Counted from the first letter of the stretch, positions 25,801 through 63,244 are shown. The stretch is 64,000 nt of DNA from an uncultured delta proteobacterium (GCA_963743305.1 CAVUPH010000014.1:256001-320000); one strand, 5' to 3'. Numbers and translations: made by a program. Notes: generated by a model not told the origin, from the letters alone.

Positions 25801-26543
25801 CTCCTTCTTTGGTCATGGAAAAGCTGGCGGTACTGACCGAGGATTTTAACGGCGACGGGCTGGTGAACCCGGGGGAAGCAATCACCTATATCATTACCCT
25901 GCAGAATATCGGTTCCAGCGCTGCCGAGGATGTCCGTTTAAGCGATCCTTCACCGACCTTGACCAACATGATCTCTGGTTCGGTGACCTCGACTCACGGG
26001 GTAGTCTTATCGGAAAATCCGGTGACGGTCAATATCGGTCAGCTCAACCCCGGGGAGATAGTCATCGTTCGATTCCGGGCACGCATCCGTGCCGACGTAC
26101 CCAACGGCTCCTCCGTGCTGAATACGGCTACGGTTTCTCAGGCCGGGGGCGAACCGCTTCAAGCTCAGCAAACCACCTTGGTTTTAAGCGCTCCGGTAGT
26201 GGTCGGCTCCTTATGCGGTTCCGTTTATAAGGATTGTGACCAGGACGCCACGCGAGATCCACTGGAACGGGGCCTCAGCGGGGTAACCGTTCATTTGTTC
26301 CGGGCCAATGGGACCTGGATCGCCACCGCCACCACCAATTTCCTGGGCGTCTATCGCTTTAACGGTGTGCCCGAGGGAACCTATACGGTTCAGGAGGTGG
26401 TCCCCCAGGGGTATCTCCCTTCTACCCCGAAGGAATTGTCTGTGTCGGTCATCGAAGGGGGAACGTCTACGTCCAGCTTCGGGGTCCAAACCCAGAATAG
26501 TCCCTGCCAAAGAAGAATCTATCTGCCGATCATTGTGAATTAA
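10856..26543 (+). CDS. Giant secreted adhesin-like protein (~5,200 aa): tandem DUF11/isopeptide-type Ig-like domains and a C-terminal SdrD-B-like domain; about 8 frameshifts
   Basis: Signal peptide ...[19 protein letters not shown]. Dozens of K-x-F-x-P...LTITxxN...D-x-LP-x-G...N repeats continue across ORF breaks (e.g. [14 protein letters not shown] near 14786). C-terminal [27 protein letters not shown]...GVYRF...[10 protein letters not shown]. Confidence 0.85.
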
Positions 26544-26550
26544 GGAATGG

Positions 26551-26580
26551 CAGGCCCCGGGGGCTCACCCCCGGGGCCTG
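26551..26580. terminator. 13-bp perfect hairpin between convergent genes
   Basis: CAGGCCCCGGGGG-CTCA-CCCCCGGGGCCTG, with no clear U-tract. Confidence 0.55.
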
Positions 26581-26951
26581 TAGGCCACGCAGTCGATCTC
26601 CACGGCCCCGCCCAGGGCAAGCTCCGCCTTTCCCACCGTAATCCGCGCCGGGGGATCCGTTCCCATGACCGCCAGGTAGGCCTGGTTCATCTCGCCAAAG
26701 GTCCCCATGTCGGCCAGGAAGACGTTGACCTTGACTACGTCTTCCAGCTCGGCCCCACAGGCCTTGAGGATCGTTTCGATATGCCGCAGGGTCTGGGTGG
26801 TCTGGGCCCCGGTTCCCCCCTCCACCAGCTCCAGGGTGTTGGGTTTGGTTCCCAGGATCCCGGAGACATAGATGAAATCTCCGGCCACCACCGCGTGGCA
26901 GAAAGCCGGCAGCCTGGCCAGCCCCTCCACGATAACTTTTTTTCCAGCCAT
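26565..26951 (-). CDS. ridA: RidA/YjgF/YER057c/UK114 family protein
   Basis: HAVVAGDFIYVSG, VVKVNVFL, PPARITV, VEIDCVA. RBS AAGGAGG before ATG 26951. Confidence 0.85.
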   Translation of the reverse strand: MAGKKVIVEGLARLPAFCHAVVAGDFIYVSGILGTKPNTLELVEGGTGAQTTQTLRHIETILKACGAELEDVVKVNVFLADMGTFGEMNQAYLAVMGTDPPARITVGKAELALGGAVEIDCVAYRPRG

Positions 26952-27026
26952 ACTATCTTCCTCCTTTGCTCTCGAGAAATTTTCGGAAATCAATCCTTTG
27001 CCGGACGAAACTCCGCCACTTCGGTT

Positions 27027-28511
27027 TCAGAATTCGGTGGTTGAGATTTCGTCGTCTTGATCATCCCTTTTTTTTTCACGGAAAAGCTTAAACGTCCGGA
27101 TCAATAAGGCCCAAGCGATCCAGGCGCAAAAAACGATTAAGGGGAGGGTGGCCCAGCGGGGCCAGAAGATCAAAAGCAGGGTGACGGTCAGTAGCAACAC
27201 CCCGGCCAGGCCGGTGATTCTGGCTTCCGCGGGGCCTAAGAGGCGGTGGTTGGTGATGGCCGCCCCCACGGTGCCGCTGAGCCGGATGGCCCGAATTCCC
27301 GCCCGTCCCACACTGCCTGAACTGAAGGGTCGGTCGGGGAAGCCTCGTCGCGGGGAAGCCGACGAAAGACGCACCTTTCCCCGCAAACTGATGACCACCT
27401 CCGTGGACGACCTCAAATCTTCCTCATACATATTTTCCATGGCCCGGGCGAAGGTTTGATCCTCCACGGCCACATCTAGTTCGTAATTACCCATCCAACT
27501 GGCGATATTCAGATTGGTGGAACCCACCCGGGCCCAACGGCCGTCGGCCACGGCTGTCTTGGCGTGAATCATGGGACCGTTCCATTCAAAAACCCGGACA
27601 CCGGCTTCCAATAAAGGCTGGTAGGCCGCCCTGGAAATTCCCCGCAGCAAGGGAATATCCGTGGCCCCGGGAAGCAGGAGGCGCACATCCACACCGTCCT
27701 GGGCGGCTGCCCGTAGGGCCTGGACGTACGAACTGGTCCCCATAAAATAGGCGTCGGTCAACCACAAGGTCTGCCGGGCCAGAGCGGCGATCAGCAGGTC
27801 CAAGCGGTAGAGGCCGGCCGTGGAGGGAACGGTGCCGATCACCCGCAGGGCGACGCTTCCGGCCGGCGGGATCCGGTCCGGAGGGGGGACCTCTTCGGGC
27901 GGCAAGGGTTCGCCCACGGTAGCCCAGACCTCGTCAAAGGATCGTTCCAGATCGACCAGGGCCGGACCGCGCACCTCCACGCCCGTATCCCGCCAGGGTT
28001 CAATCCCCTTTTCGGGTTCACCGGCCCACATCCGCCCTACGCATAAACCGGTGACAAAGGCAACACGACCGTCAACGGCGATCATCTTGCGGTGGTCCCG
28101 GGTGATCCAGCTCAGCGGGCTGTCCCAGTGAGGCGGATTGAAACAACGCACCTCCACACCCCTATCCCGCAGGTGCTTCCAGAATCGTCCGGAGGTCTTG
28201 CCGAAGCCGCCAACCCAGTCATAGAGGAGTCGGACTTTGACCCCTTCCCGGGCCTTGGCGGTCAATATTTCGGCGAATCGACGGCCGACTTCATCTTCGT
28301 GGATAAGGTAGCTCTCGAAATGGATGAACTTCCGCGCCGAAAGCAGGGCCTCTACCCAGGCCGGGTAATTTTCCCGAGCGTCCTTTAAAAGACGGAGGGC
28401 GTTTCCGCTAACCAGGGGAGCGCCGGCCGTCCGGGAGAGGACTTGCTCGGCCAATTGCCGGACAGGCAGCGTTGGTTCCCGGGATGACGGGGTGGGGTCC
28501 TTCGGATCCAT
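27027..28511 (-). CDS. cls: Cardiolipin synthase-like phospholipase D protein
   Basis: Two HKD motifs ([21 protein letters not shown]...GSTNL) and WRDT. Start position uncertain. Confidence 0.85.
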
Positions 28512-28566
28512 ATAAATTCTATCTATCATAGGGCGGGTTAGGGGACCATCGTTTTCGCCAGTGATA

Positions 28567-29727
28567 TCAAGCCGTCTCCACCGTGCCCCGCAGGATCCGA
28601 ATCCGCAATCCTCCGTGAGATAACGATATCCCTTGATCAAAGCGCAGCCCGGTATTCCGAGTCAAGGGAAGACTCGAGCTAAGGAGAGCGACCTGCCAGC
28701 CCGGACACTTGGCTCGCAGGACCTTGCCGAATTGAGCATAGAGGTTCCTCAGGTCTTTTTGCCGGCTGACCCGAACTCCAAAAGGCGGATTGGTAACCAC
28801 CCAGCCGGGTCCCGCCGGCACCTCAATCGATGAAACGGCCCGGCAGGAAAATTCGATGAGGCGGCCCACCCCGGCCCTTTCGGCATTTTCCCGGGCGGTC
28901 TTAATGACCCCCTGATCCCGGTCCGATCCGCTGAGGCTGGGGGTAAAACCCTTCAACCCGGGGGCGGGGGTATTCAAAAGAGACTGCCATTTCCGGGCCT
29001 CAAAAGAGGGCCAGTTCATAAAGGCAAAGGGCCGGTTCAATCCCGGCGGAATGTTATAAGCCTGCAAGGCGGCTTCAATGGGGATGGTGCCGGAACCGCA
29101 AAAAGGGTCTATCAGGGGAGATGCCCCGTCCCATCCGGAGGCCAGGAGCAGTCCCGAAGCCAGGGTTTCTCTCAGCGGGGCCTTCCCTCCCGCCAGCCGG
29201 TATCCTCTTCGATGGAGCAACGATCCGGAAGAATCGAGACTGACGGTCACCTGGTCATTTACCACCCGGGCCATGATGATTTGCGGCCCTGGGAATGTTT
29301 CGTTTTCATCGCCCGACTGAACGGGGGGAAGTCGACCCAACCGGTCGGCAATGGCCCCGACCAGACGCTCGGCCACGGCCTTCTGATGATACAGACGGGA
29401 TTGGTGACAGGTGACCCGGAAAACCACCGGGCTCCCGGGTGGGAGTACCTCTTCCCAGGGAAGTTGACCGGCCTTGCGGCGCAGCTCGCTGAACGCGGCC
29501 GCGTGAAAAGTCCCGAAGCGGACCAATATCCGCTCGGCGGTCCGCAAATTAAGATTCGCCCGGTAGAGATCCGTCAGCTCCCCCGAAAAGGAAATCCCGC
29601 CGATCTCCTCATCGGCCGGGTGCTCCGGCGCTGAGGAACCCGGGTCGGGAGGAAAGAGACCCAGGGCCTCCAGCTCGTGTGCCGTAAAAGACTCTAATCC
29701 TGGAGTACAGACGGCGAAAAATTCCAT
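28567..29727 (-). CDS. THUMP-domain class I SAM RNA methyltransferase (RlmL-like)
   Basis: LHRRGYR...[24 protein letters not shown]. Confidence 0.9.
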
Positions 29728-30985
29728 TTATCCCGCCGATTTTCTAAGCCGGTTGATCCTTTCCACTAGAGGGGGATGGGAATAATGAAACCGGACATAG
29801 AAGGGATGGGGGTTCAGGTTGGTCAGGTTGTCGGCCGCCATCCGTTTAAAGGCTTCGATCAACGGTTCGGGCCGTTCCCATCTTGGCCAGGGCATAATCG
29901 TCGGCCTGGCGTTCATAGCGTCGGGAGAGGGCCAGGGGAAAAGGGGCCAGGAAGAAAGCCGCTTTTTGTCCGATGAGGCCCAGTAAAAAAAGACCGACAT
30001 AGGCTTTGGGTTCGCCGAAGCCGAAGGAAGAATAGAGTCCGGACCAACCCAGGAATCGAGCGGCCAGATAAAGCCCGGCCAGAGTAGAGGCGGCAAACAG
30101 CAGAAACTGTTTAAGGATGTGCTTTTTTTTGTAGTGCCCCAATTCGTGGGCCAGGATGCCTATGATTTCTTCCTGGGGATGGGCCTGGATCAGGGTATCG
30201 AACAGAACCACCCGTTTGGTTTTCCCCAATCCGGTAAAATAGGCATTGGTATGGCCGCTGCGTTTTCCGGCGTCCATCTGAAAAATCCCTTTCAGACCGA
30301 CCCCGGCCGTTTTCATCAGTTCGGTGATCTTTTCCTTCAAATCTTCCGCTTGAATGGCCTCAAACTTATTGAAGAGGGGAGCGATGAGTACCGGGTAGAG
30401 TACGGCCAGCACCAATTGAAATGACGAGAGGAACAGAAAGCCCCAGACCCACCAAAATTGAGGGGCGGCCTGGATGAGCCAGAGGACCAGGGAAAAGACC
30501 AGAGTAAAGAGAAGCAACGAAAGCAGGCCCGCCTTCAGGTGATCTAAAATCCAAATTTTGAGGGTGGCCCGGTTGAAACCGTATTTTTCTTCCAGCACAA
30601 AGGCTTGATAATAATCAAAAGGCAAATCCAGTAAGGCATTCAAAAGCCCGGGGATCATAAAAAACAACAGGCCCGTGAGAACCGAATTCCAAGACAGGCG
30701 GGTCAGCAGGTTATCCAAGAAGGGGAAGAAGCCCCAGAGAATCAGACCCAGGAAATAGAGTTCGGAAAAGACCAGGTGAATCGACTCGAATCGGCTCCGC
30801 TCCCCCGAATAGGCAATGGTCTGTTTCACTTTTTGTCCATCCATGAACCCTTCAAATCCCTCCGGTACCCGGCCGCCATGTTTTTGCTGATGATCCCGGT
30901 TCATTCGCTCCATCCCCAGAGCGAAGATCAACTGAAGCAGATAGAGCCCCACAAAACCACCAAACAAAAAATTCCATTGAGGCAA
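29728..30985 (-). CDS. M48 (Ste24-like) zinc metallopeptidase, frameshift near 29880
   Basis: NAYFTG.GKTKRVVLFDTL, AHELGH, ERQADDYA. C-terminal YSHPPLVERI lies in the next frame. Confidence 0.9.
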
Positions 30986-31007
30986 AAAGAACTCCTTAGT
31001 TTATTGC

Positions 31008-31293: not shown

Positions 31294-33072
31294 ATGCATT
31301 TTTTAAAATCCTTCAGCGCCTTCCTCAAGGCAGGTTTTATCTGCACGATTATAACCCTCACTGTTTCAGGGGTCTCCTCGGGGGCCGCGCCGACTTTAGC
31401 GGTGGTGGTGGAAGGACTGGAAGGAGAGTCCCAAAAAAACGTGGAACGGGCTCTCTCCCTACCGGAAGGAATCTTGGATAAAGATCGGGTCGATGAACTG
31501 TGGCTGGCCCTTTTCCAAAAGGATGTACCCCTGAAGGTCCGGGAAGCCTTGAAGCCTTTCGGCTACTATCATCCCCGTGTGGAAACCGTCAGCGAGAGGT
31601 CCTCCGATAAGCTTGTCCTGCGGGTCCACGTTGAACCCGGACCTCCGGTTCGGGTTCAAGCCCTAAGAATAGAGCTTCAAGGACCCGGGTCCGAGATGGA
31701 CAAACTCCGGGAGCCTATCTCCCTATTTCCGTTGAAAGAGGGGGATGTGCTCCGGCAGGACCTGTATGAGGAGGGAAAAACCGCCCTTCAGGACGCGGCC
31801 CGTGAATCCGGCTACCTGGACGCCTACTTTTCCACCCACAGCATTCATCTATCTTTAAAGGAAAATTCGGCCCAAATAAACCTGAACCTGGACACCGGCC
31901 CCCGATATTACTTCGGAGAGGTTGTCTTTGTCCCGCCCTTGACCTTTCCGGAATCCTTTCTGCGGCGGTACCTGGCTTTCCGCCCCGGCCGGCCTTATTC
32001 CCCGCGAGGCCTGGCCCGGACGCAACTCAACTTCAACAACGCCGACCGTTTCTCGGAAGTCACCATCGAGGCCGACAAAGAAGAGGCGCGGGATTACCGG
32101 GTGCCGGTCCGCCTTCGCCTGACGCCTTCCAAACTTAAGCGGTTCCGGTTCGGAGTCGGTTACGAAACGGACAACGGACCCGGAGTGCTGGTCCGCTATC
32201 AGGACCTGAATTTCAATCATTGGGGGCACGAGGCCAACGCCGAGCTGAGGCTTTCCGAGCGACTGCAGGGATTGGGCTTCGATTACATTCTGCCGGGTAC
32301 TCGTAATTTAGACGACAAGACCACTTTTAAACTGGGCTATAAACATGAAATCACCGATACCTACGATACGCGCTCCTTCTTTGCCGTGGGCGAAATCGTG
32401 CACCCTCTCGGCCGGGGTCGTCTGGGGTCGGCCTACCTACAACTGTTGCAGGAAGATTATACTATCGGCGACCAGAAAGGGATTGCCACCCTGTTGATCC
32501 CGGGGGCCCGATTCTGGCAGCGCCGTTACGACGACCTGGTTCGTCCCACCCGGGGCTACCGCTTTTCCATCGAGACCCGGGGGAGCACTCCGGCCCTGGG
32601 CGCCGACGGGTCCTTTCTGCAAGTCATTCCCCAAGGCGATGCCCTGATCCCCCTGGGAAACGGTTTCTCGCTCCTGTTGCGGGGCCAGATGGGCGCCTCC
32701 CTTCAGAAGGAACCCTTAAAAACTCTCCCGCCGTCTCTCCGCTTTTTTGCCGGCGGGGATCAAAGCGTCCGAGGATATGCGTATCAATCCCTGGGCACCC
32801 AGGATCCGTCCGGGAAAGTGGTGGGCGGGAAAAACCTGCTGGTCGGCAGCCTGGAAATCGAAAAGGCTATTACCCGCCTCTGGGGATTGGCGGCTTTTTA
32901 CGATGCCGGGAATGCCTTCGATGATTTCAGCCAATATAAATTGAAACAGGGCGCCGGTCTCGGCCTACGCATTTATACTCCCTTGGGCCCCATCCGACTC
33001 GATCTGGCGCGCCAGATCGGTGAAACCGACAACCAGTATCGGATTCATTTTTCCGTGGGGTTCGCCTTATGA
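31294..33072 (+). CDS. tamA: Autotransporter assembly complex protein TamA (Omp85 family)
   Basis: ALKPFGYY POTRA region, RFFAGGDQSVRGY, GPIRLDLA, C-terminal FSVGFAL. Confidence 0.92.
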   Translation: MHFLKSFSAFLKAGFICTIITLTVSGVSSGAAPTLAVVVEGLEGESQKNVERALSLPEGILDKDRVDELWLALFQKDVPLKVREALKPFGYYHPRVETVSERSSDKLVLRVHVEPGPPVRVQALRIELQGPGSEMDKLREPISLFPLKEGDVLRQDLYEEGKTALQDAARESGYLDAYFSTHSIHLSLKENSAQINLNLDTGPRYYFGEVVFVPPLTFPESFLRRYLAFRPGRPYSPRGLARTQLNFNNADRFSEVTIEADKEEARDYRVPVRLRLTPSKLKRFRFGVGYETDNGPGVLVRYQDLNFNHWGHEANAELRLSERLQGLGFDYILPGTRNLDDKTTFKLGYKHEITDTYDTRSFFAVGEIVHPLGRGRLGSAYLQLLQEDYTIGDQKGIATLLIPGARFWQRRYDDLVRPTRGYRFSIETRGSTPALGADGSFLQVIPQGDALIPLGNGFSLLLRGQMGASLQKEPLKTLPPSLRFFAGGDQSVRGYAYQSLGTQDPSGKVVGGKNLLVGSLEIEKAITRLWGLAAFYDAGNAFDDFSQYKLKQGAGLGLRIYTPLGPIRLDLARQIGETDNQYRIHFSVGFAL

Positions 33073-36000
33073 AACGAGGATTGCTAATCGGCGCCGGTCT
33101 GCTGGCCCTGATCCTGGCCCTGTTGTCCTGGGGGGTTTACCGCCTCCTCTGGACTCCCGGCGGCGTACGTTGGCTGCTGGAAAAGATCCCCCAATATACG
33201 TCCCTGACGATCCGGGCCGAAAAAGTAGCCGGCCGGCTGGCTGGCGATCTGCTCCTGGAAGGCGTACAGGTCCGGTGGGAGGGCGGTCGACTGGAAATTC
33301 AACAGTTGCAGACCTCCTTCAGGATCAGTCCTCTGCTCCAGGGACGCCTCCTTTTTGAGAAAATTGCCGCCAACCGGATTTCCTTTGAAAAAAAGTCGTC
33401 CCCGCTGGAGCCGCTTGATTTAACCCTGCCCCGGGTCGGCGGCCTTCTGGGTCGTCTGGATTTTGAGGTCCGGACTTTTCTCCTGGAGGCTATTCTCTAC
33501 CAGAGTGGTCAAGAGCCGCCGGTGGTCATTAAAAAAATAGGCGGTCGACTGGCCTGGAAGCAGGGGACCTTGGCGCTCAATCCCCTGGAACTGGAATTGA
33601 CCGCCGGGCGGTTGCAAGGGGCGCTGGGGTTAGGTCTGGCCGTTCCCTCCCTGAAGCTGGATCTCCAATTTTATCCGGAGAAGCCCCTTTGGGGTTCGGA
33701 CCGGATTTTCCTGCAGGCGCACTTGAAGGAAGGCCGCCGCCCGGAACAGTTGGCCGGCCCGCTGGCGATTCAAATCCGGTCGGAATCCAGAGATCAAATC
33801 CTGTTCCAATCCGATCTGGCCGTCGCCCCTCGGCGAATTACCCTCCACCGGTTTTCCCTCCGGGAAAAAGGCCGGGAGGGAACAATTAACGGACGGGGAG
33901 CGATCATTTTTGAGCAGGCGGGTACCGCCTACCAGGCTGATTTAAGAATAGATGGCCTCGATCTATCCCGGGAAGTGAACTTTCCCGCCAAGCTGACGGG
34001 ATTATTGCGGGTTGCTGGAAATCCGGGTTCGTATAAAGGCGACTTCGATTTGAAAAATAATGCGAATACCTGGCGGACCATGCAACTCCGAGGCGGCTTT
34101 CAAGGGAACACGGCGGGACTGGACGCGCAGGTGGACCGCGGGGAATGGATCAAGGGGTCCCTAAAAGGGCGGGTCAGACTGGCCTGGGTTAGGTATTTTT
34201 CTCTTCAGACTACCCTGGAAGGCAGACAGTTCAGGCCGGAGCAGATAAACGCCGGCTGGCCGGGAATAATCAATGCAGATCTCAAAGGAAATCTGCTCTG
34301 GTCGGAGACCGGCCTGTCCGGTGGAACCCTGGACATCCGCCTGCTGGAGAGTCGGTTCCAGGAGAAAAATTTACTGGGCGGGATCAGGGCCACCTTGAAA
34401 GGTGAACGTCTTTCCATTGAAAAAGCCGAACTCCGGGGACGAGGATTCGCCCTTACGGCCCACGGGGATTGGACAGAACGTCTGAACTTTGAAGCCCGGG
34501 TCGCCGATCTTTCCGCCTTGCTGCCCGAAAGCCGCGGAGGGGGGGTGGCCAGCGGCTGGATCCGCTGGCGGAATCAAAAGCTGGCAGGACGCCTCTCCCT
34601 TCAGGGGAAACATTTTTCCTGGAATGACCTCTCCGCTGAAACGTTTAACCTGGAAGGGGGGTTAGACCAGGAGAAACCGAAAACTTCGGTCGACCTGAAG
34701 ACCCGGATTGGGAAAGGGACGTTTCGTTCCTTCCCGGTTGACTCCCTCTCCCTGAAGGTTCAAGGGACGATGGCCCGGCAGGAAATAAGTCTTTCCGTTC
34801 AGACTCCGGAGGGAAAGGTCCAAGCCGGATTGGAGGGGGCTTATCGACAAAGCCGCTGGGAGGGGACCCTTTTAACCCTGGCCGGGGAAATCCCCCGGGG
34901 AAAGGCCTTCCGCCTGAGGGATCCCGCCGAACTGAACATCGGGCCGGAGCGAATCCGCCTTTCATCTCTGGTCCTCACCGGGCCGGGCGGGGAGGTCCTG
35001 ACCCTCGAGGGGGACCTGAGTCTGAAGCCGCTTTCGGGTTTCATACACGGTAAATGGCAGCGGTTCGATCTGGCCCGAGCCCGTTTCTGGTTAAAGCAGC
35101 TTCAGCCGGAGGGAGAGGCCTCCGGTCGGCGCAGGCGCTCTTTTCAGGGGAAGATCGCCTGGAAGTTACCCTCCGGAACGAGATGAAGGGAAAAATCCGG
35201 ACCGCCCGGCAGACCGTGGAAATAAACCGGGGTGATTTAAATCTGAACTGGAACGACGCGGGGCTGCGTTCCTCCTGGGATCTATCCGGACTGGGGGGGG
35301 TTCGATTTTGGGGCGAGGCCGCCTCAGCGGAAAAAGGCCGTTTTTCATTTCCGGAAAAAGGGGGCCTAAACGCCCAATGGAACGGGCTGCGTCTGGACCT
35401 CCTGAAACCGTGGCTGCCTCAAGGCCTTGTCCTGCAAGGACAACTAACGGGCCAGATTCAGGGATTCTGGAGCAAAGGGCTCCGCTTTAATCTCGATGGC
35501 GGGGCCAAGGTCCAGGAGGGTTCCATCGCCTGGAAAGAAAACGGATCTGAAATCCGGGCTCAGGTGCGTCAGGCCGACTTGGGAGTTCACTGGGGTGAGG
35601 AGTCCTTGAAAGGCGATCTGGCGGTTGACCTCGATGGGTATGGAAAGGCCTCGGGAAAATTCCATTTGCCCCTTCCCTCCCGATTACCCTTGAAGTTTAA
35701 TCCCTTCGGTCCGCTGCAAGCCGGACTTTCGGGAAACTTTCGAGAAAGGGGTCTGGTAACCGCCCTCTTCCCCCAGGCGGTTCGTTCCAGCCGGGGGAAA
35801 CTGCAATGGGACCTCGCTGCCCAAGGGACCTGGGAAAAACCAAACCTACGGGGAAATCTGGAACTGGCCGAAGGCGGAGCCGATCTGCCCTCCCTGGGCC
35901 TTCGTCTCCAGGACGTAACGATCAAAGGAACCCTCGGCGACGATCGCCTTCAAATTGACTCACTGGATCTGCGCTCCGGGCCCGGGACCTTGAGTGGAAA

Positions 36001-37003
36001 GGCCGGTTTCAGGCTGAAGGATTGGAAAATTACCGAATTGCAGGGCCGGTTGCTCGGAAAAAATTTTCAATTCGTCAACCGGCCTAGTTTTCAAGCCCTG
36101 GGGAGCCCGGACCTGACGTTTAACGGGGCCCCGGACCAACTCCAAGTGAAGGGCAAGATTGAAATCCCTGAAGCCCTGATCACCAAAGATCTCATTCCGG
36201 GAATAAAAAAAGCCAGTCCCGATGTGGTGATCGTGGATGCCCCCCCGTCCCCCCCGGCGGGCCGGATTTATCCCCTCCAGGGCCTTATCCATCTGGTCTT
36301 TGGAGAAAAAGTCCGGGTAAAAGTCGGCGGGCTGGATACCCTGCTCAAGGGAAATATCCAGGTGGCTCTCCACCAAACCAAGGACCTGACCGCCGAAGGG
36401 GAGATCCGCGCCGACCAGGGTACTTACCTCGTTCAGGGAACCAAACTGAACATCACCCGGGGACGGTTGATTTTTCAAGGCCCCCCCGATAACCCGGTCC
36501 TGGATATCCTGGCCCTGCGGACCATCCGGGGAAGTCAACGCCTGGAAAACTATGTGGATGAGGTCAAAGCCGGCGTCGTGGTGACCGGGTCGATACGGTC
36601 GCCCCTGGTCCGGCTCTCTTCCCAGCCCGCCATGTCGGAGACGGAGGTGTTATCTTATATCTTATTCGGAAAACCCCTGGGACGCGGCGCCGACCAGCAG
36701 AACCTGGCGATTCTGGGCAAAGCGGCCCAGCTTCTTTTGGGAGATAAAATGGACAGCAGCCTGGTCAGCCGCCTGAAGCTGGATACCCTCGATATTCAAT
36801 CCGAAGGCGGGGATGTTTCCCAATCCATCGTTACTGTGGGCAAGTACCTCGACCCACGCCTCTACCTGGGTCTGGGGGGGTCCCTGTTCAGCAATACCTA
36901 TCAGGTCATACTGCGCTACGCCCTTACCCAGCGCTTGGAACTGGAAACCAGGGGGGGCACCCAGAGCGGCGGGGGCATTTATTATAAGGTGGATTTCGAG
37001 TAA
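33069..37003 (+). CDS. tamB: Translocation/assembly module TamB (frameshift near 35130)
   Basis: N-terminal TM anchor, AsmA-like beta repeats, DUF490-type C-terminus (NPVLDILA, VLSYILFG, VGKYLDPRLYL). Confidence 0.9.
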
Positions 37004-37144: not shown

Positions 37145-38980
37145 ATGTCGAATCGGTTAAGTTTACGGAAGATTTCGCCCTTCCCTATCCTATTGATCTC
37201 ACTTTTCTTTATTGCCCTGTCGGTTCCCAAGGGGTATTCGCAATCCTTCGTTACCCGATGGGGGTCCCTGCCTCCTGGGAACGGCAACTTCAAACACCCC
37301 ATCGGAGTGGCCGTGGATCTATCGGGCGATATTTTAGTGGTCGACAGCGGCAACCATCGCATCCTGAGATTCAACAACACCGGAGGTTACATAGAACAAT
37401 GGGGTTCCCTGGGAAGCGGTAACGGCCAGTTTAATTGGCCCATAGGAATAGCCGTCGATGGACCAGGGAATATTTATGTGGTCGATGCCGGAAATGGTCG
37501 GATCCAGAAATTTAATTCGGATCGAACCTATCGCTCCCAATGGGGCTCCCCGGGAAGCGGTGACGGCCAGTTTAATTGGCCCTATGGATTGGCTATCGAC
37601 TCAACCGGCAATATCTACGTGGCGGACGGATCCAACCATCGCATTCAGAAGTTTGACTCCAGCGGCGGGTATCAGACCCAGTGGGGTTCCCTCGGAACGG
37701 GTGACGGCCAGTTTAATTTCCCCGTGGGAGTGGCGGTTGACACTGCTGGTAACGTTTTTGTAGCCGACAATAAAAACAATCGAATACAGAAGTTTACTTC
37801 CGCTGGCGGTTTCCTGACCAAATGGGGTTCCCGGGGAGGAGACCCAGGCCAATTTAGAAACCCTTACGGAATAACAGCCAATGCTTCGGGTAATGTCTTT
37901 GTGGTTGACTCGGAAAACAACCGTATTCAGGAATTCAGTATCAGCGGATCTAATGTAACTAATGTAAGCCAGTGGGGTGCCTCGGGGACAGGGGACGGTG
38001 CCTTTATGGGCCCGCAAAACCTGGCTTTTGATACCTCGGGAAACATTTATGTTACTGACGGCTATAACCACCGGGTCCAAAAGTTTAACTCCAGCGGCGT
38101 GTATCAGACCCAGTGGGGTTCCCTGGTTAATGGAAATGGACAGTTAAATTTACCCCGGTCTGTGGCCGTGGATCCGACCGGGACTTATGTATATGTTGCT
38201 GATACCTTCAATCATCAAATTCAGAAATTCAGTACCAGCGGTACCTTCCTATCCAAATGGGGATCTTTGGGAACCGGCAACCTCCAGTTTAGTTTTCCCA
38301 TGGGGGTGGCGGTCGACCCCAGCGGCAATGTCTATGTGTCTGACAACCAAAACAATCGCATTCAGAAATTTGATTCCAGCGGCGGTTATATCACCCAATG
38401 GGGTTCCTTGGGCACTGCAAACGGTTTCTTTAAGGAGCCAAGTGGGGTAGCCATAGATTTATCCGGATTTATCTATGTCGTTGATAATGAGAACAACCGG
38501 GTCCAAAAATTTGACTCCAATGGAGGATATCGCACTCAATGGGGCTCTCCAGGTCCCGGGAACGGTCATTTCAATGACCCCAATGGAATAGCAGCAGACG
38601 CTTTCGGTTTTGTTTATGTGGCTGATCGCCTTAACAACCTGATTCAGAAGTTTACTTCCAACGGCGTTTTCGTAACCGAATGGGGTTCCTCCGGGGCCGG
38701 CGATGGGCAGTTTATCAGCCCAACAGGAGTAGCAGCCGACAAGTTCGGCAATATCTATGTGACGGATGCCTTTAACAACCGGATCCAGGAGTTCTCTTCC
38801 AATGGGACTTTTAAAACCAAATGGGGTTCACTGGGGGGCACCAACGGACAGTTCGAGGTTCCTATTGGTGTAGCGGCGGACCGTTCGGGCCTTGCCTATG
38901 TAGTTGATTACTTAGATTGTTCTATCCGGACATTTGATTTACAGTGGCAAGCCCTATACCTGCCGTTGCTGCGGCGTTGA
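37145..38980 (+). CDS. Secreted NHL-repeat beta-propeller protein (12 repeats)
   Basis: Signal peptide, then 12 WGSxGxGxGQFxxPxGxAVD...YVxDxxNxRIQKF-type repeats. Ends QALYLPLLRR. Start placed after AGGAG. Confidence 0.9.
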   Translation: MSNRLSLRKISPFPILLISLFFIALSVPKGYSQSFVTRWGSLPPGNGNFKHPIGVAVDLSGDILVVDSGNHRILRFNNTGGYIEQWGSLGSGNGQFNWPIGIAVDGPGNIYVVDAGNGRIQKFNSDRTYRSQWGSPGSGDGQFNWPYGLAIDSTGNIYVADGSNHRIQKFDSSGGYQTQWGSLGTGDGQFNFPVGVAVDTAGNVFVADNKNNRIQKFTSAGGFLTKWGSRGGDPGQFRNPYGITANASGNVFVVDSENNRIQEFSISGSNVTNVSQWGASGTGDGAFMGPQNLAFDTSGNIYVTDGYNHRVQKFNSSGVYQTQWGSLVNGNGQLNLPRSVAVDPTGTYVYVADTFNHQIQKFSTSGTFLSKWGSLGTGNLQFSFPMGVAVDPSGNVYVSDNQNNRIQKFDSSGGYITQWGSLGTANGFFKEPSGVAIDLSGFIYVVDNENNRVQKFDSNGGYRTQWGSPGPGNGHFNDPNGIAADAFGFVYVADRLNNLIQKFTSNGVFVTEWGSSGAGDGQFISPTGVAADKFGNIYVTDAFNNRIQEFSSNGTFKTKWGSLGGTNGQFEVPIGVAADRSGLAYVVDYLDCSIRTFDLQWQALYLPLLRR

Positions 38981-54766: not shown

Positions 54767-57700
54767 TCAATTGGTTATGTTAATCGTCATCCCGTTGCTG
54801 ATGGCCCCCTTCGAGTTCCGGATTTTCACGGTCACAGATCCGGGAGTGCCGCCGCTGTTCCAACTTGGAAGGTGACCGAAGTCGGGGACCAACTGGTCGC
54901 CGTCAGGGTCGCGCCACCGATCAGAACCGCGCCGGGGGTGGTGTTGGGGCCGAATCCCCCTCCGTAGACGGTGAATAGTGTAATTGGTGTTCTTGGCCAC
55001 GGTCGACGGGCTCACCCTGGTGATCGTGGGCTGCTCCAGGGTGACCGTCGGCGTGCAGTCGGCCGTGTATCCGTAGCGGTTGTCGATATAGAGCAGATAC
55101 AGCGGGGCCACGGCCGTGTAATACCCGAGACGGTGGTCGTTAGAACGCGCGTCAAAGGGGTGGAGGCGATACCCCTTCAAACTTCAATCCGGGAATGATT
55201 TTTCGGGTCGAATCATAGAAATAGAACAATCTTACCGGTGCAGGTGCTCGGCGATCCGGGCCGTGCTCCCGATGCCCGAGGAAAAGGAAGCCGGGGGACT
55301 GGAGGTGGTAGCCTGGATGGTCAGCAGACCGGAACTGAGGGCCGGTGGGACGGTGCTCTGAAACACGGTGTTTACCGGCTGGTCCATCACCACCGGCGCC
55401 GTCCGGGAGGTCCAGTTCCAGGACTTCACCGGTTCAAAGGATTTGCTCCAGTAGGCCTGGGCAAATTCCTTGTAAAAATCATCAAATTTTTTGCCGGTAA
55501 CGAACTCGATGGCCTTTAGCGGGTCTACCACGTTATCCATGTCGACGGTCATGGCCCAAAAGGTTTGAAATACCGCCTTGCTTCCATAATTTTGTTTCAG
55601 GTACTCGGCCAAAGCCATGGCCCCGTTCATTTCTTCGGGTTCCATACTATTCCAGTCGGCGTACCCGGTCCGCAGCCATTCTTCGCCCCAGGAAGGATGG
55701 ATATCCTTGGTATAATAACCGAGATGGGATGGATAGACCTCATACTGGGCCCAGATGGCCGTGGCCTCCTCATACCAGACCGGGTTCATGTACCGTCCGG
55801 AGGGCGAGGCGTTGGTTTTCTGTAGCACATGCATAAATTCGTGGACGGCCGTATCCTGGAGATATTCCAGGGTCAGGACATTGTTGATCAGGATATAGAA
55901 ATTGTTCAGGTCTGCCGAAAGCCGGGGTGACTCCGGTCTCGAAGAGCTCGCCGCCCAGGGGGCCACCTTGACCACGACCGGTTCAGCGGGCATGATGGCC
56001 CCCAGGCCCTGGAAGTGGCTGTACCCCGTCTCCAGGGCGTCGAGCAGATTCACGGCATAGGCGAGCGGGCAGTCGGCGGTGTTAAACAGGACGACGAAAC
56101 GGGGGGTGACGAGCTTGTCGTTGGGCAGGCCCACGGCGTGCCAGACGCCGGTGGTCCCCAGCCAGTTCAACCCGCGGCCGGATCCAACTGGGAGAGGCGG
56201 GGGCGTTCAGGTTGGCGGCCCGCTGGAGGGTCGTCTCGTTCTGCAGGGCGCCGCTCAGGGGATAGGTGCCGGCCGGGAGTTTCAGGGTGATGTACCCGGC
56301 CATGGTCGAGTCCGGACTGTATTCGATGGGAAAGGCATCCTGGATGTTCGAATCGTAAAAGGCCATGATCGGGTTCGCCGCGCTGCTTCCCTGGGGCATA
56401 TGGATCAGGAGGTCCTGATTGAGCTGGGTCACTTCGGGCGTGAACCTGAAATAGTAGACCAGACTCTTGTCGCTCACCGAGTCGCGAACGGGATAAATAT
56501 TGTCCTGGGAATAAAACGACACCTGATACCCTCCCGGGTTGTAGGGCAACGCCCCCGCCGGGATCTCCAGGGCGGCGACGCCGGCCCACAAGACTCCGCC
56601 CTTGGCCGGATCGATCGTTTTAACGGCGGAAGTCGGGGCCCCGTAGGCGTTCACCGTAACGGTGGCGTGTTTGACGGTCGGATTCGTCCCTTCCCCGGTG
56701 ACGGTGAAGTGGTAGACACCGGGGGTCGTGAATTGATAAAACACCCTGATCTCCCCATCGTAATTATTGCGGACGGCCGTGGCAAAGAGCCCTTCATCCG
56801 AACTCAAGGAATAGCCCTGGTAATGGGACAAGGCCACCCACTGACCGGGCGCCACCGTCAGGCCGGCCCCGTTGCTGTCCAGCGGAAATCCCAGATAGGG
56901 GACGGCGGGCGCCTTTACCTGCTGGGAAGCGCAGGAGACGCCGTTGATTTTGAATTCGAGGGTGCCGTACTGTTCGGACAGGGGTTGGTAGACCGACGGC
57001 TCGGGCTGGGGGATCGATATCGTGTAATGAAGGACGCTTTCACTGCCGGTGAAACTATTTTCTTCCAGGGGATTCATTAAAAAACGAGCGCCGTTGTAAT
57101 AAAGGGCGTTATGGGCCGGGATGTTCGAGAAACCCGACGCCTTGGCGGTGATATGCAGGTTCGATCCGGAAAGGGTGCCGGCAGGGGTAAGCTGAACCTC
57201 CGGGGCGATATCGTTAAAGGACTCGGCGGAACGGGTGGTCAGTTCTCCTTGGGAGACCACGAACAGTGTGCCCCCCGAAACGGCCAGCGGTCCGGGTTGC
57301 GTGACGGGTATCGACCCCACCACATCCGAAAGGGGGCCGGACACCACCGAGACCACATTGCCGGTGCCGTTCGACAGGTAGGTCCGGCCATTGGTCCCGG
57401 CCGCCAGGTAGTATAAACCTCGGAATCCGGGGTATTCGAAAAGAAGGCTATCCAGGGGATTGGTCCCCACGGCGGTCAGCAGATAGGCACCGGTATAGTC
57501 GGAGGCCCCACAGCTCTTATCGGGACGGGTGGCCAGCAGCCGACCTTCGCTGTTGACCGCCAATCCCTCCAGGACCCCAAGTCCTCCCATCCCCGTGCTG
57601 TGATCACCCAGGACCTGTCCGTTGGAGGCCTGCAGCACGCGGACCCAGAGTTGCGGACCGGACAGCCGAACCAGTAGTCGTGAATGCGCGACATGGACAG

Positions 57701-58680
57701 GTACAGAAGATCTCCGGAGGGTTCATAGGCCAAATTCCAAACTTCCTCTCCGGCTGGAACGGCATAGAGCACAGTTAGGGTACTCCCCGCCACCGTCGCG
57801 ACTTTTTTCGAAGCCGGGTTGGTCTGAGACGACATGATCAGAAAGACCTTGCCTCCGCCCGGATCCGCGGCCAGACGGCTGAACCCGTATTCCAGCCCCT
57901 GGGCCGGGGCCGAGTTGGTGAGGTCGGCAAACGTGGATAGCCCGCCGGAGGCGTTGGCCTGATAAACGATCGGAGCGGCGGCGACATAAGCGGTCCCGGA
58001 CGGTCCGTTCGCCAGGTCGGTGATCGTAGTACCCGCGCGAGAGTTGCAACGGTTCCGCGTAGAGGGTCTGTCCGGAGACGATTTTGTTTGTCGTATCGAC
58101 CACGATATTGCTGATGGGCAGATTGGAAGAAAGCATCCCGGCATTTTCAGTCGTTGCTGTCTGTTCCAAGGCATTGGAAACCGACCCGGAGGAGATGATC
58201 AGCCGGGATTCGTCCAAAAAGGCCGTGGAAACCTTGGAATAATCGATGGAAATGGTCACCGGAAAGTTGAATTGATAGAAATTGTAGGGGTCTTCGCCGG
58301 GGTTCAACTGACAGAGGATGTAAAAATTGAATTCGAGCCACGAAGCGTTTTGGTCCGGGGTTTCGATGTGCAGGGTGCAGTTGGGATAATTCACCGCTCC
58401 CTGGGGAAAGTCGAGGGCCATCCGGCCGCCCAGGGCCTGGATTTTCCCACCGCCCCAGTCGACCGAAAAGGTTTCATGGCTGGGCTGGACCGGGATGATT
58501 GGGGCCGGATCTTTCAGAATCACCGGGAGAAAGATATGGGTCTTCGGAACCGAAAGCCGGTCTACGGATCGAGAATCATCCGATTTTGCCGCCGCGGTTG
58601 ACGTCCCCGGGAATAATCCGGTCAACATAGACACAAGAAATAAAACTGAAATCCGGTAGCCTAACCCGCAGCATTCTCAT
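54767..58680 (-). CDS. Large secreted multidomain protein, copy A (~1,300 aa): ZU5-like, propeller-like, HEXXH peptidase, IPT/TIG-like; several frameshifts
   Basis: ORF pieces 57723-58634, 57476-58174, 56082-57638, 55232-56170 and 54767-55180 are collinear with copy B. Contains TAVHEFMHVLQ...WYEEATAIWA. Confidence 0.75.
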
Positions 58681-58741
58681 CTGGTCCTCTCCATTAATCT
58701 TAAGTGGAATCAATATATTCTGCTCATAGACAAGCGGACGG

Positions 58742-58770
58742 ATTATAAACAATCCAAAACAAAAATGCAA
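58742..58770 (-). promoter_or_regulatory. Sigma70 promoter of copy A
   Basis: Minus strand TTGCAT, 17-nt spacer, TATAAT. Conserved in copy B. Confidence 0.65.
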
Positions 58771-58805
58771 TCCCCCGAAAGTAGGGTTTTTAAAGTTTTA
58801 CTTGA

Positions 58806-59165
58806 TTGGCTTCCAAGGGCCACCGATTGCCGAACCAGATCTCCGGGGGGGAACAGGAGCGCGTGGCCATCGCCCGGGCCGTGGTCAACCGCCCGCCGAT
58901 CCTGCTGGCGGATGAACCCACCGGGAACCTGGACACCCGGACAGGCCGGGAGATCATGCACTTACTTCAAGAGCTGAACGGAGAGGGTATGACCATCATC
59001 ATGGTCACCCACAGCCCGGAATGGGCCCGCTATACCCATCGGGTCCTGCATATTTCCGACGGGCGACTGCAGGGGGAAGAAATCCATTCCGCCCCGCTTG
59101 AGTTGGCAGCGGCGGAATTCAGCCAACCTGATTTTTCGGCAGGAAGGCCGGCGGTGTCGAGTTGA
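58806..59165 (+). pseudogene. Orphan 3' half of the ABC ATPase
   Basis: Nearly the same as 53935-54293 ([24 protein letters not shown]...) but lacks Walker A. Confidence 0.85.
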
Positions 59166-59359
59166 TCAACTACGCCCCGCCACGGGATCGCTTTACTCCT
59201 CAACCTGCCGGACTGGCAGACTTTTTAAGAATCCGTCCCAGGTGATATGGTTATATGCCGGCGGTTGCTGATGGCGCCCTCAAAATTCCGGATGCCCGCA
59301 ATCCGCGGCCCGGATTGGCCCCGCCGTTCCAGATGAAAGGCTCCAGGGAATTCCAAAGG

Positions 59360-62300
59360 TCAATTGGTTATGGTAATCGTTATCCCGTTGCTTCTGGCCC
59401 CCTTCTTGTTCAAGATGTACACGGTCACCGAACCGGGAGTGGCGCCGCTATTCCAACTGAAGGTGACCGAAGTCGGAGACCAACTGGTCGCCGTCGGGGT
59501 CGCGCCACCGATCAGGACCGAACCGGGAGTGGTGTTGGGGCCGAACCCCCCACCCGAGACGGTGAATGATCTGGTAGTATTTTTGGGGACAGATGACGGA
59601 TATACCCCGTTGACCGTGGGCTGCTTCCAGGGTGACGGTCGGCGTGCAGTCGGCTGTGTTTCATCCGTAGCGGTTATCGATATAGAGCAGATACAGCGGG
59701 GCCCCGACCGTGTATTCCCCGAGACGGTGGTCGTGATAAAGCGCGTCAAAGTCCGGAGGAGGCGATACTCCTTCAAACTTCAATCCGGGAATGATTTTTC
59801 GGGTCGAATCATAGAAATAGAAATTCTTGCCGGTGCAGGTGCTCGCAATCCGGGCCGTGCTCCCGATGCCCGAGGCAAAGGAGGCCGGGGGACTGGTGGT
59901 GGTGGCCTGGATGGTCAGGAGACCGGAACTGAGGGCCGGGACGGTGCTCTGAAATACACGGTGTTTACCGGCTGGGTCATCACGAGGGGATCCGTCCGGG
60001 AGGACCAGTTCCAGGATTTCACCGGTTCAAAGGATTTGCTCCAGTAGGCCTGGGCAAATTCCTTGTAAAAATCTGCGAATGGTTTGCCGGTAACGGTCTC
60101 GATGGCCCCCGCCGGTCCCGTCCAATCGTCCGACATGGTCCAGAAGGTTTCCAGGACCGCCGTAGCTTTTTTGCTTTGGAGGTAAACGGCCAGGGCCATG
60201 GCCCCGTTCATTTCTTCGGGCTCCATGTTATTCCAGTTGGCGTACCCGTTCCGCAGCCATTCCTCACCCCAGGATGGATGGATGTCCTTGGTATAATAGC
60301 CGGTATGGGACGGGTAGACCTCATATTGGGCCCAGATGGCGGTGGCCTCTTCCCACCAGAGCGGGTTCAAGTTCCGTCCGACGTACCAGGAGTTGGTTTT
60401 CTGCAGCACGTGCATGAATTCGTGGACGGCCGTGTCCTGTAGATATTCCAAAGTCAGGGCGTTGTTGATGAAGATATAAAAATTAGCCAGGCTGTTGACG
60501 GCGGGGGTGAGGCCGGGGGTCGTGGTGCCGGCGACCCAGGGGGCCACTTTGACATACACCGCCGTGGCGGGCATGACCGACCCCATGGCCTGGAAGTGGC
60601 TGTACCCCGTTTCCAGGGCGTCGAGCAGGTTCGCCGGCATAGGAGGGCGAGCAGTCGGCGGAGTTGAACAGGATGACGAAGCGGGCGGTGACGAGCTTGT
60701 CGTTGGGCAGGCCCACGGCGTGCCAGACGCCGGTGGTCCCCAGCCAGTTCAACCCGCGCCGGAGCCAACTGGGAGAGGCGGGGGCCTTCAGGTTGACGGC
60801 CCGCTGGAGGGTCGTCTCGTTCTGAAGGGAGCCGCTCAGGGGATAGGTTCCCGCCGGGAGCTTCAGCGTGATGTACCCGGCCATGGTCGAGTCCGGACCG
60901 TATTCGATGGGAAAGGCGTCCTGGATGTTCGAATCGTAAAAGGCCATGACCGGGTTCGCGCCGCCGCTGCCCTGGGGCATATGGACCAGGATGTCCTGAT
61001 TGAGCAGGGTCACTTCGGGAGTGAACTTGAAATAATACACCAGGCTCTTGTCGCTCACCGAGTCGCGAACCGGATAGGTATTCGCCTGGGAATAAAATGA
61101 CACCTGATACCCTCCCGGGTTGGAGGTAGCGCCCCCGCGGGGATCTCCAGGGCGGCCACACCCGCCCACAAGACCCCGCCCTTGGCCGGGTCGATCGTTT
61201 TAACGGCGGAAGCCGGGGCCCCGTAGGCGTTCACCGTAACGGTGGCGTGTTTGACGGTCGGATTCGTCCCTTCCCCGGTAACGGTGAAGTGGTAGACACC
61301 GGGGGTCGTGAATTGATAAAACACCCCCATATAGCTACCATGATGGCCGCGGCGAAGAGCCCTTCGTCCGAACTCAAGGAATAGCCCTGGTAATGGGACA
61401 AAGCCACCCACTGACCGGGTGCCACCGTCAGGGCGGCCCCGGTGCTGTCCAGCGGAAATACCAGATAGGGGACGGCGGGCGCCTTTACCCGCTGGGAAGC
61501 GCAGGAGATGCCGTTGATTTTAAATTCGAGGGTGCCGTACTGTTCGGTCAGGGGTTGGTACGACCGAAGGATCGGGCTGGGGGATCGATATCGTGTAATG
61601 CAGGACGCTTTCACTGCCGGTGAAACCAGATTCTTCCAGGGGATCCATTAAAAAACGAGTCCCGTTGTAATAAAGGACGTTATGGGCCGGAATGTTCGAG
61701 AAACCCGGCGCCTTGGCGGTGATGTGCAGGTTCGATCCGGAAAGGGTGCTGGAAGGGGTAAGCTGAACCTCCGGGGCGATCTCGTTAAAGGACTCGGCGG
61801 AACGGGTGGTCAGTTCTCCTTGGGAGACCACGAACAGTGTGCCCCCCGAAACGGCCAGCGGTCCGGGTTGCGTGACGGGTATCGACCCCACCACATCCGA
61901 AAGGGCGCCGGCCACCACCGAGACCACATTGCCGGTGCCGTTCGAAAGGTAGGTCCGGCCATTGGTCCCGGCCGCCAGGTATCCCAGACCGCGAAACCCG
62001 GGGTATGACGATGAGAAGCCATCCAGGGGATTGGTCCCCGCCGCGGTCAGCAGCGAGGCGCCGGTATAGTCTGAGGAGCCACAGCTTTTGGAGGGCAGGG
62101 CCGCCAGCAGTCGCCCTTCGCTGTTGACCGCCAACCCCTCCAGGACCCCAAGTCCTCCCATCCCCGTGCTGTGGTCACCCAGGACCTGTCCGTTGGAGGC
62201 CTGCAGCACGCGGACCCAGAGGTTGCGGACCGGACAGCCGAACCAGGAGTCTTGAACGCGCGACATGGACAGGTACAGGAAATCTCCAGAGGGTTCATAG

Positions 62301-63244
62301 GCCAAATTCCATACTTCCTCTCCGGCTGGAACGGCGTAGAGCACATTCAAGCCGCTCCCCTCGGCCGTCACCACTTTCTTCGAAGCCTGGGTCTGGGAAG
62401 ACAGGATCAGAAAGACCTTCCCTCCGCCGGGGTCCGCGGCCAGACGGCTGAACCCTTTCAAAAGCCCCTGGGCCGGGGCCGAGTCGGTAAGGTCGGCAAC
62501 AGTTGAGAGGCCGCCGGACGCGTTGGCCTGATAAACGATCGGGGCGGCGGCGACATACGCAGTCCCGGCCGGTCCGGACGCCAGGTCGGTGATCGTGTAC
62601 CCGCGGGAGAGATGCAACTGTCCCGTGTAAAGGGTCTGTCCGGAAACAATTTTATTGACCGTATCCAGTGATATATTATCGATGGGGATATTGCTCGAAA
62701 GGGTTTCCATCCCCGCTACGGCTTCCGGCTGCGTCAACGCCCCGACCGCCGGTCCGTCGGAAATAATGAGCCGTTTCTCGTCAAAAAATACGGTGGAGAT
62801 TTTGGAATAATCGATGGCAATGGTTACCGGAAAATTGAATCTATAGATCTTGATGGGATCCTCGATGCCGTTCAGACAAATAATGTAAAAATCGACCTGA
62901 AGCCAGGGGTCGTTCTGATCGGGGGTTTCGATATGGAGCGTACATCCGTTCCGGTCAAAAGCCCCTTGCGGGAAATCGAGTTTCATCCGCCCGTCAAGGG
63001 CGGTAATGGTTCCGCCGGACCAGCCGATCGTATAGGTTTCATGGCTGGGCTGGACCGGGATCATCGGGGCCGGATCTTTCAGTACCACCGGGAGAAAGAT
63101 ATGGGTCCTCGGAACCGAAAGCCGGTTCACGGAGCGATAATCATCCGATTTTGCCGCTGCGGTTGTCGTCCCCGTGATTAACCCGCTCCACATTGCCACA
63201 AGAAATAAAACTGAAATCCGGCAGCCTAGCCTGTACCTTCTCAT
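59360..63244 (-). CDS. Large secreted multidomain protein, copy B (~1,295 aa); several frameshifts
   Basis: Signal peptide MRRYRLGCRISVLFLVAMWSGLITGTTTAAA. ZU5-like GGTITALDGRMKLDFPQGAF and GGVLWAGVAALEIPAGAL. TAVHEFMHVLQ...WWEEATA. IPT-like TVSGGGFG...WSPTSVTF. Confidence 0.78.

Follow-up and report, generated by a model that had tools for sequence, protein, structure and literature searches.

A short peptide motif of Tyr-Leu-Pro or Phe-Leu-Pro followed by hydrophobic residues, here called the YLP-box, is encoded four times in a 64,000-nucleotide stretch of DNA (C14:256001-320000, hereafter the window). The window comes from the 4.91 Mb genome of an uncultured delta proteobacterium (G000; 43 contigs, 54.6% G+C, 90% complete). 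Translation of the window confirmed all four copies at the places where the initial annotation had reported them. Two are C-terminal and lie on the plus strand. The tail IYLPIIVN plus stop codon (26517..26543, with the stop at 26541-26543) closes the last fragment (24519-26543) of a giant adhesin-like gene of DUF11/SdrD_B type. The tail LYLPLLRR (38954-38977) belongs to an NHL-repeat beta-propeller protein of the ScyF-like family (37145..38980), which carries a Sec signal peptide and ends in QWQALYLPLLRR, with the stop at 38978-38980. The other two copies are N-terminal and are found in tandem paralogues on the minus strand, as THIFLPVILKD at 58509-58541 in paralogue A (tag IFLPVILKD, 58509..58535; gene fragments about 55232-58634) and as THIFLPVVLKD at 63074-63106 in paralogue B (tag IFLPVVLKD, 63074..63100; gene fragments about 59915-63244). 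The tag of paralogue A stands approximately 20 residues past the predicted end of the signal peptide, and that of paralogue B approximately 20 residues past the signal peptide MRRYRLGCRISVLFLVAMWSGLITG.

The carrier genes themselves are less intact than was first described. The giant surface-protein gene (10856..26543, plus strand) was delimited by a frame map, by Pfam (DUF11, SdrD_B and SpaA) and NCBIfam matches and by homology to a giant open reading frame (ORF) in a second delta proteobacterium genome, G405. The initial annotation had treated it as a single giant protein; the tail is present, but in the assembly the gene falls into at least six pieces in three frames over approximately 10856-26543. 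In G405 its counterpart runs without interruption in a single frame over at least 3312 amino acids and closes with the same tail, KIYLPIIVN. Either an assembly error in the repeats or a decaying gene could account for the breakage. The tandem paralogues had been described as HEXXH proteins, and HEFMH was indeed found, but both genes are broken and the motif occurs only in downstream fragments in other frames (near 55843 in ORF 55232-56170 for paralogue A, and in ORF 59915-60640 for paralogue B). Neither paralogue matched a Pfam or NCBIfam family. The G405 orthologue of paralogue A retains THIFLPVILKD, and the terminal motifs of both the giant protein and paralogue A are conserved between the two genomes. 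A frame change, near residue 80, is also seen in the G405 orthologue of the HEFMH paralogues. The further statement that all four proteins are Sec-exported holds in part, as signal peptides are clear in the NHL protein and paralogue B, the N-terminal piece of the giant gene contains a hydrophobic signal-like stretch, and the N-terminus of paralogue A is incomplete. For the NHL protein, the NCBIfam ScyF 'PEP-CTERM protein' model covers the propeller only (best stretch, model positions 138-285 of 376).

Between the giant gene and the NHL gene stand a Ste24-like M48 peptidase with a five-helix N-terminal domain (29846-30985, minus strand), TamA (31294-33072, plus strand) and TamB (33069-37003, plus strand). 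The giant protein, PLD, M48 peptidase and TamA genes follow in the same order in G405 with 72-90% identity, with an ORF of RlmL size between PLD and M48 in that genome. Judged by this sequence comparison, G405 is a close relative of G000. The synteny also agrees with the earlier assignment of the window to a probable Desulfobacterota genome, of 'delta proteobacterium' or sulfate-reducer type.

Across the genome the motif is concentrated at protein ends well above chance. In a control made without gene calls, which covered the 37,849 stop-to-stop frames of at least 60 amino acids in the whole genome, [YF]LP[LIVM][LIVM] was found in 47 frames at no more than 12 residues from the stop, whereas the rate in frame interiors, with 120 hits, predicts approximately 8.3. 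Spacing between motif and stop peaks sharply at 7 (17 cases) and 8 residues (15 cases). Likewise, the last 15 residues hold 32 of the 84 motif matches in a crude set of 4,580 ORFs, and a DNA pattern for the tail gave 25 matches in G000 against 11 with a reversed control pattern. Synonymous codons vary in the DNA that encodes the tags, which points to selection on the peptide rather than the DNA and rules out a DNA repeat as the source of the motif. A logo was built from 97 non-redundant tails of five genomes, its positions 0 to 4 being fixed by how the tails were collected. It shows R, K or Q at position -2 and I, L or V at position -1 (77/97), followed by a core of Y (69) or F (28), L, P, then L/I/V/M, I/V and L/V. 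The end is R (57), K (19), N (9) or Q (4), and in 72 of the 97 tails the stop follows directly after the basic residue. The consensus is thus (R/K/Q)-[ILV]-[YF]-L-P-[LIVM]-[IV]-[LV]-[RK], mostly with the stop at once thereafter, and the YLP-type tail is a genuine ultrashort terminal tag. Directly before many tails, in several genomes, there is a second shared motif, GG(Y/F)xLxGGFW(x)G (L044, L052, L054, L055, L075 and L087; G000 C19:80268-80657; G405 L156:8311-8583), which suggests a recurrent last module ahead of the tag.

The sorting signal had been put forward as undescribed, and this did not stand. NCBIfam curates the motif in two models, NF050076 (sort_motif_YLP, 11 positions) and NF053834 (ultrashort_CTERM, 10 positions), under the name 'YLP-box putative sorting motif-containing protein', and several G000 tails exceed the curated cut-offs (15 bits for NF050076 and 10 bits for NF053834, tested on 40-residue fragments). 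For loci of G000 outside the window, NF053834 scored 13.2, 13.2, 12.4 and 13.5 bits on the C-terminal fragments of L008, L003, L017 and L013, respectively, and for the N-terminal tag of L149 it gave 11.1 bits; NF050076 reached 15.1 bits on the L013 fragment only. A six-frame search of G000 returned 24 places at or above the cut-off, mostly tails already found by the motif, and an NCBIfam scan of full-length tagged proteins (E up to 0.01) returned nothing on the tails. No paper on the YLP-box was found in the literature, where motif strings returned only unrelated peptides. The passages available from a study that defines tripartite C-terminal sorting signals (10.1101/2023.06.07.544157) make no mention of Chloroflexi. 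As far as we could search, the motif is known to curators, apparently unpublished, and its library entry carries no mechanism.

Proteins that carry the tag are mostly exported. The enrichment among signal-peptide proteins, which the initial annotation had proposed as a check, was clear in G000: 16 of the 25 tagged ORFs of at least 100 amino acids were signal-peptide-positive against 556 of 3896 untagged ORFs (odds ratio 10.7, Fisher p 2e-8). Four other genomes behaved alike, with 16/25, 18/26, 8/11 and 6/10 tagged ORFs positive compared with 39/225, 26/198, 14/92 and 13/108 of their untagged neighbours, respectively. A Pfam and NCBIfam scan of 20-23 tagged proteins identified PKD/Big, FG-GAP, LamG, beta-helix, CarboxypepD_reg and TIG domains and the delta-60 propeller, along with Lcl_C, thaumatin-like, M23 peptidase, metallophosphatase, choice-of-anchor Q and Z and NHL domains. 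The cargo includes a TIGR03118 'PEPCTERM_chp_1' protein and the ScyF-like NHL protein. Carriers are therefore mostly Sec-exported surface-type proteins with adhesin or hydrolase domains, dozens per genome. Tagged genes also cluster, with approximately five on G000 C11:1-47438 and four within 20 kb of C13:245001-265000. The C11 cluster includes an M23 peptidase and an RlpA-like DPBB protein that adjoins an extracytoplasmic function (ECF) sigma factor gene.

The TIGR03118 family shows what the tag can stand in for. Among the matches listed, a YLP-type tail occurs in 4 of 120 clusters. The G000 protein and the two closest clusters (80-82% identity) end in NGLFGVIQPxRAY[YF]LPLI, whilst cluster P0017 is longer, with extra C-terminal sequence, and ends in NNLIYLPIILNITW. 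The next-closest homologues (73-77% identity, one of them labelled Smithella) and most others among the matches listed instead read NGLFGVIQ, then VPEP, a hydrophobic stretch and RRKK, which is a PEP-CTERM. By alignment of these sequences, the YLP tail occupies the exact place of PEP-CTERM in TIGR03118 orthologues. Only one PEP-CTERM-like tail was found in G000 (C23:39403-40041), a genome that is 90% complete. In the CSLREA/TIG family, a YLP-like tail directly past the last TIG domain was seen in 28 of 120 homologues among the matches listed, three of which are labelled Chloroflexi, Chloroflexales or Chloroflexus, and the close orthologues all keep FTIGPPxLYLP[LI][IV]xRN. Structure prediction agrees with a position outside the fold. 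In the AlphaFold2 model of the TIGR03118 protein the tail has a predicted local distance difference test (pLDDT) score of approximately 53 after a propeller above 90, and the N-terminal tag of a small CBM-like protein falls in a stretch that scores below 50, next to a domain that scores above 90. A buried strand of each fold, named in the initial annotation as grounds for rejecting a signal, is thus ruled out for these two proteins, and the PEP-CTERM swap speaks against it as well.

The N-terminal copies of the window are not isolated cases. Elsewhere in G000, proteins with the order signal peptide, tag, domain contain TQA-YSLYLPLIIKV, SMKIYLPLVLSP or FVYLPVIFKD, and in a papain-like C1 peptidase the catalytic domain is followed by a Pro/Thr linker, then the tag and then another domain. 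G405 contains an architecture of signal peptide, YLPLITK and polyproline. A further set is a family of 17 members with a CBM-like domain, named NGDFE; in 12 of the 13 rows that have upstream sequence the domain comes after a YLP-type tag of the form (W)VYLPV[VI]LKD.GxCxQT or a variant of it. One member has a complete Flg_new_2 domain separating the tag from the CBM-like domain, so the tag behaves as a separate element. The same order of tag and NGDFE domain is found in two Chloroflexota genomes (G402 and G403), and both the signal peptide-tag-domain and the domain-linker-tag-domain architectures occur in two phyla. These N-terminal layouts mirror the C-terminal domain-linker-tag design and, on their sequences, are difficult to square with a sortase-like reaction, in which whatever follows the motif is lost. 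In two families of N-terminal or internal copies, Asp or Glu nearly always follows the basic residue (LKD, LRD, LKE); this acidic residue could stand in for the free carboxylate present in the C-terminal form, the basis being two independent families only. Motif counts, signal peptides and N-terminal copies together bear out the earlier observation that the tag sits near either terminus of exported proteins with unrelated folds.

The distribution of the tag was followed with a codon-restricted pattern (I-Y-L-P-L-[IV]-L-[basic or polar]-stop) in a one-genome-per-species collection, where 80 of 108 stretches were listed; such pattern searches detect only tails ending exactly 7 residues after the Y/F. 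Chloroflexota records made up 60 of the 80 matches listed (Anaerolineae, Anaerolineales, Thermoflexales, Caldilineaceae, Promineifilaceae, Chloroflexia and Herpetosiphonaceae) and 'uncultured delta proteobacterium' records two. Among these listed matches the upstream frame was open over the whole flank (100 codons in nearly all) in 55/60 from Chloroflexota and 2/2 from delta proteobacteria, against 0/17 from other phyla and 0/1 unlabelled. The link to Chloroflexota made in the initial annotation therefore proved sound. Within 57 regions of 20 kb around pattern matches, 76 long ORFs end in the tag, and here too signal peptides are enriched. Counts of the pattern against its reversed control were 12 v 2 in G401 (Anaerolineae), 24 v 6 in G402 (Caldilineaceae), 9 v 0 in G403 (Chloroflexia), 19 v 5 in G404 (delta proteobacterium) and 29 v 3 in G405 (delta proteobacterium).

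A sample of 401 genomes from the window's phylum gave a clear excess in one genus only, that of the window (g1), where it was present in 3/3 genomes (18 v 7, 11 v 1 and 19 v 5). The sister genus (g2) was at background, with 37 v 40 summed over 11 genomes. A mild excess in raw pattern counts (e.g. 11 v 4, 8 v 1 and 7 v 1) was also noted in G001, G176, G292, G175, G180, G243, G030 and G039. In a sample of 151 Chloroflexota genomes, 7 were tag-rich (at least 9 hits, with a control of at most 3) and 101 had no hit. The distribution is patchy in both phyla.

We searched for a protein that might read the tag by asking which candidates share this distribution. Omp85 was found in G000 and G405 and not in G401-G403. 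Sortase (PF04203) showed the opposite pattern, being found in G401-G403 and not in G000 or G405. Exosortase (PF09721) was found in G405 (one match), G401 and G402, and not in G000 or G403. The Ste24-like M48 peptidase of the window was found in G000 and G405 and not in G401-G403, whilst a TMTC-like membrane-TPR protein adjoining a tagged gene was found elsewhere only in the tag-free G031 and not in G401-G403 or G405. Omp85/TamA, sortase, exosortase, the M48 peptidase and the TMTC-like protein were all rejected as readers, their distributions over the genomes searched not following the tag. The NGDFE domain alone adjoins the tag with regularity. It was attractive at first, as it is preceded by the tag in two phyla and is present in 3/3 genomes of g1 against 0/11 of g2. 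It has a CBM61/CBM16/CBM4-like fold and folds completely without the tag (AlphaFold2). As a specific reader it fails, being present in 33 of the 144 tag-poor Chloroflexota and in only 5 of the 7 tag-rich ones, so that two lack it. The NGDFE domain is cargo that favours N-terminal tags and not a specific reader.

Gene neighbourhoods were compared by all-against-all clustering of approximately 220 neighbours in G000 and of 1,324 ORFs from G000 and four further genomes, with Pfam searches on 94 and 24 of the sequences. Only generic families emerged, namely histidine kinases, ABC ATPases, BTAD-AAA-TPR regulators and metabolic enzymes. A single cluster taken as 'unknown' turned out to consist of antisense shadow ORFs, and the small membrane ORFs adjoining tags were mutually unrelated. 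Chloroflexota-like genes in G000 were sought by comparing ORFs of 37 Chloroflexota regions with the proteome of G000 by BLAST; 148 ORFs matched, the best being housekeeping enzymes, and the approach was discarded.

Taken together, these data lead us to a tentative reading, at a little under an even chance, in which the YLP-box is a short linear retention or docking tag that would bind non-covalently to a partner in the envelope. Adhesins and hydrolases would thereby be retained on the surface of the cell or within its envelope, and the tagged proteins would not be substrates of a sortase-type transpeptidase; use of the tag at either terminus argues against sortase-like directionality. The window's Desulfobacterota-type genus may have acquired the system, probably from Chloroflexota, and would then have shifted its own surface proteins from PEP-CTERM/exosortase to the YLP-box. 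The wider proposal that follows is doubtful, though possible. It holds that a 7-9-residue peptide, usable at either end or between domains, forms a portable docking system whose reader is neither a sortase-type enzyme nor an outer-membrane machine, and that this system crossed from single-membrane Chloroflexota into a double-membrane Desulfobacterota genus, where it displaced PEP-CTERM/exosortase.

Several points weigh against docking. The neighbourhoods of approximately 100 tagged genes in five genomes yielded no partner, only generic families. The presence and absence of candidate readers was scored in a small table of five genomes plus two phylum samples, with G000 90% complete, and the export counts come from a home-made and crude ORF caller and signal-peptide test. 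NF053834 fires in 10 of 14 control genomes in six-frame searches and is unspecific on its own. The four tags of the window match neither NF053834 nor NF050076, as 39-40-amino-acid fragments with E up to 10 or in six-frame translation of the window; they are assigned here as probable YLP-box copies, some of them divergent, by the consensus [ILV][YF]LP[LIVM][IV]x[RKN] and their context. Lastly, in G402 a sortase gene starts approximately 0.6 kb downstream of a tagged gene (L188, G402:C4:2516300-2536299, approximately 10.0-11.0 kb), which keeps a processing enzyme alive as an explanation for Chloroflexota.

In that alternative, a dedicated enzyme would cleave within the tag or at its edge and link the protein by a covalent bond to a wall polymer, a lipid or a glycan, in the manner of sortase, exosortase or PorU, and the N-terminal copies would be cleavage sites of propeptides. 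The place of the tag is exactly that of PEP-CTERM in orthologues, the Leu-Pro is invariant as in LPXTG, and NCBI curators chose the name 'putative sorting motif'. The succession of motif, short hydrophobic run and basic residue resembles a compressed form of the tripartite design as set out in the available passages of 10.1101/2023.06.07.544157. Against this, no transmembrane segment holds the substrate at the membrane, the tag also stands at N-termini and between domains, and neither sortase nor exosortase families co-occur with it across the five genomes. Only one of the nine sortase matches in G401-G403 lies near a pattern-found tag, and no recurrent membrane protein adjoins the tagged genes in the neighbourhoods examined. 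We consider covalent processing unlikely, though a serious contender. It is improbable that the tag needs no partner at all and that a basic-hydrophobic-basic peptide simply partitions into the membrane interface or a hydrophobic wall layer, held there by avidity. Such an anchor would explain why the tag occurs in genomes with and without Omp85 and at either terminus, it agrees with the seven hydrophobic residues flanked by basic ones, and frog temporins, which are membrane-active, start with FLPLI according to the part of the source available, a resemblance only. A rough estimate from interfacial hydrophobicity scales gives seven residues a few kcal/mol, too little for stable anchoring. Moreover, the strict Y/F-L-P and its spacing suggest a specific reader rather than bulk hydrophobicity, and the patchiness (7/151 Chloroflexota tag-rich; one genus in 401 Desulfobacterota) is hard to explain without a lineage-specific partner.

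That the motif is no signal, but the terminal strand of each fold or a functionless passenger of horizontally acquired genes, is largely refuted and we give it hardly any weight. The cargo appears partly shared with Chloroflexota, as with the NGDFE domain in 3/3 g1, 0/11 g2 and 38/151 Chloroflexota genomes, and this would fit a passenger. The tag is disordered or of low confidence in the two AlphaFold2 models, is carried by unrelated folds, and replaces PEP-CTERM relative to the next-closest homologues among the matches listed; orthologues in G000 and G405 have also kept the tail, as have more than 20 CSLREA/TIG clusters.

Filamentous Chloroflexota, abundant members of sediment, soil and digester communities, carry the YLP-box on dozens of surface proteins per genome. 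The tag is not tied to one phylum or envelope type and can replace PEP-CTERM on orthologues. The tagged genus and its tag-free sister genus form a natural experiment, in which a reader must occur both in g1 and in the tag-rich Chloroflexota but not in the sister genus. Such a reader, if found, would explain the retention of a large share of the Chloroflexota surface proteome.

Among known systems, PEP-CTERM/exosortase (PF07589, PF09721) resembles the YLP-box in usage. Both stand at the end of orthologues (TIGR03118 and the ScyF-like NHL protein), on the same kind of cargo and dozens of times per genome. PEP-CTERM has a transmembrane helix, an Arg cluster and a need for exosortase, whereas the YLP-box is 7-9 residues long with no helix. 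With LPXTG/sortase (PF04203) it shares an invariant Leu-Pro core and a C-terminal position on surface proteins, and the two coexist in the Chloroflexota genomes searched. Unlike LPXTG, the YLP-box lacks both the T-G and a transmembrane segment, its charged tail does not extend past a single residue, and it occurs N-terminally too. Tripartite signals, as defined in the available passages of 10.1101/2023.06.07.544157, include a membrane-spanning hydrophobic segment, in place of which the YLP-box has 3-4 hydrophobic residues after the L-P. They also have a basic cluster, where the YLP-box has a single R or K (76/97), others ending in N or Q. A tripartite signal would be expected to have its cognate enzyme family in every genome that carries it; here sortase was not found in G000 or G405, nor exosortase in G000 or G403.

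Type IX secretion (T9SS) and donor-strand or orphan-strand docking tags offer another kind of likeness, in that each uses a C-terminal address without a transmembrane helix that may be recognised through contact between proteins. In T9SS the signal consists of a folded domain of about 80-100 residues. No such domain was among the Pfam and NCBIfam matches of the 20-23 tagged proteins, and the YLP tag has 7-9 residues. For strand docking, no strand-deficient acceptor domain co-occurring with the tag was found, the NGDFE domain being the only candidate examined. The curated NCBIfam YLP-box itself agrees with the tag described here in consensus, extreme C-terminal position and kind of exported cargo. 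It differs in that the genome here is Omp85-bearing and of 'delta proteobacterium' type, and in that the copies of the window are too divergent to score. New with respect to the library entry, which names no mechanism, are the occurrence of the motif in such an Omp85-bearing lineage, its N-terminal and internal use, its replacement of PEP-CTERM, its location outside the fold in two AlphaFold2 models and the failure of candidate readers to track it.

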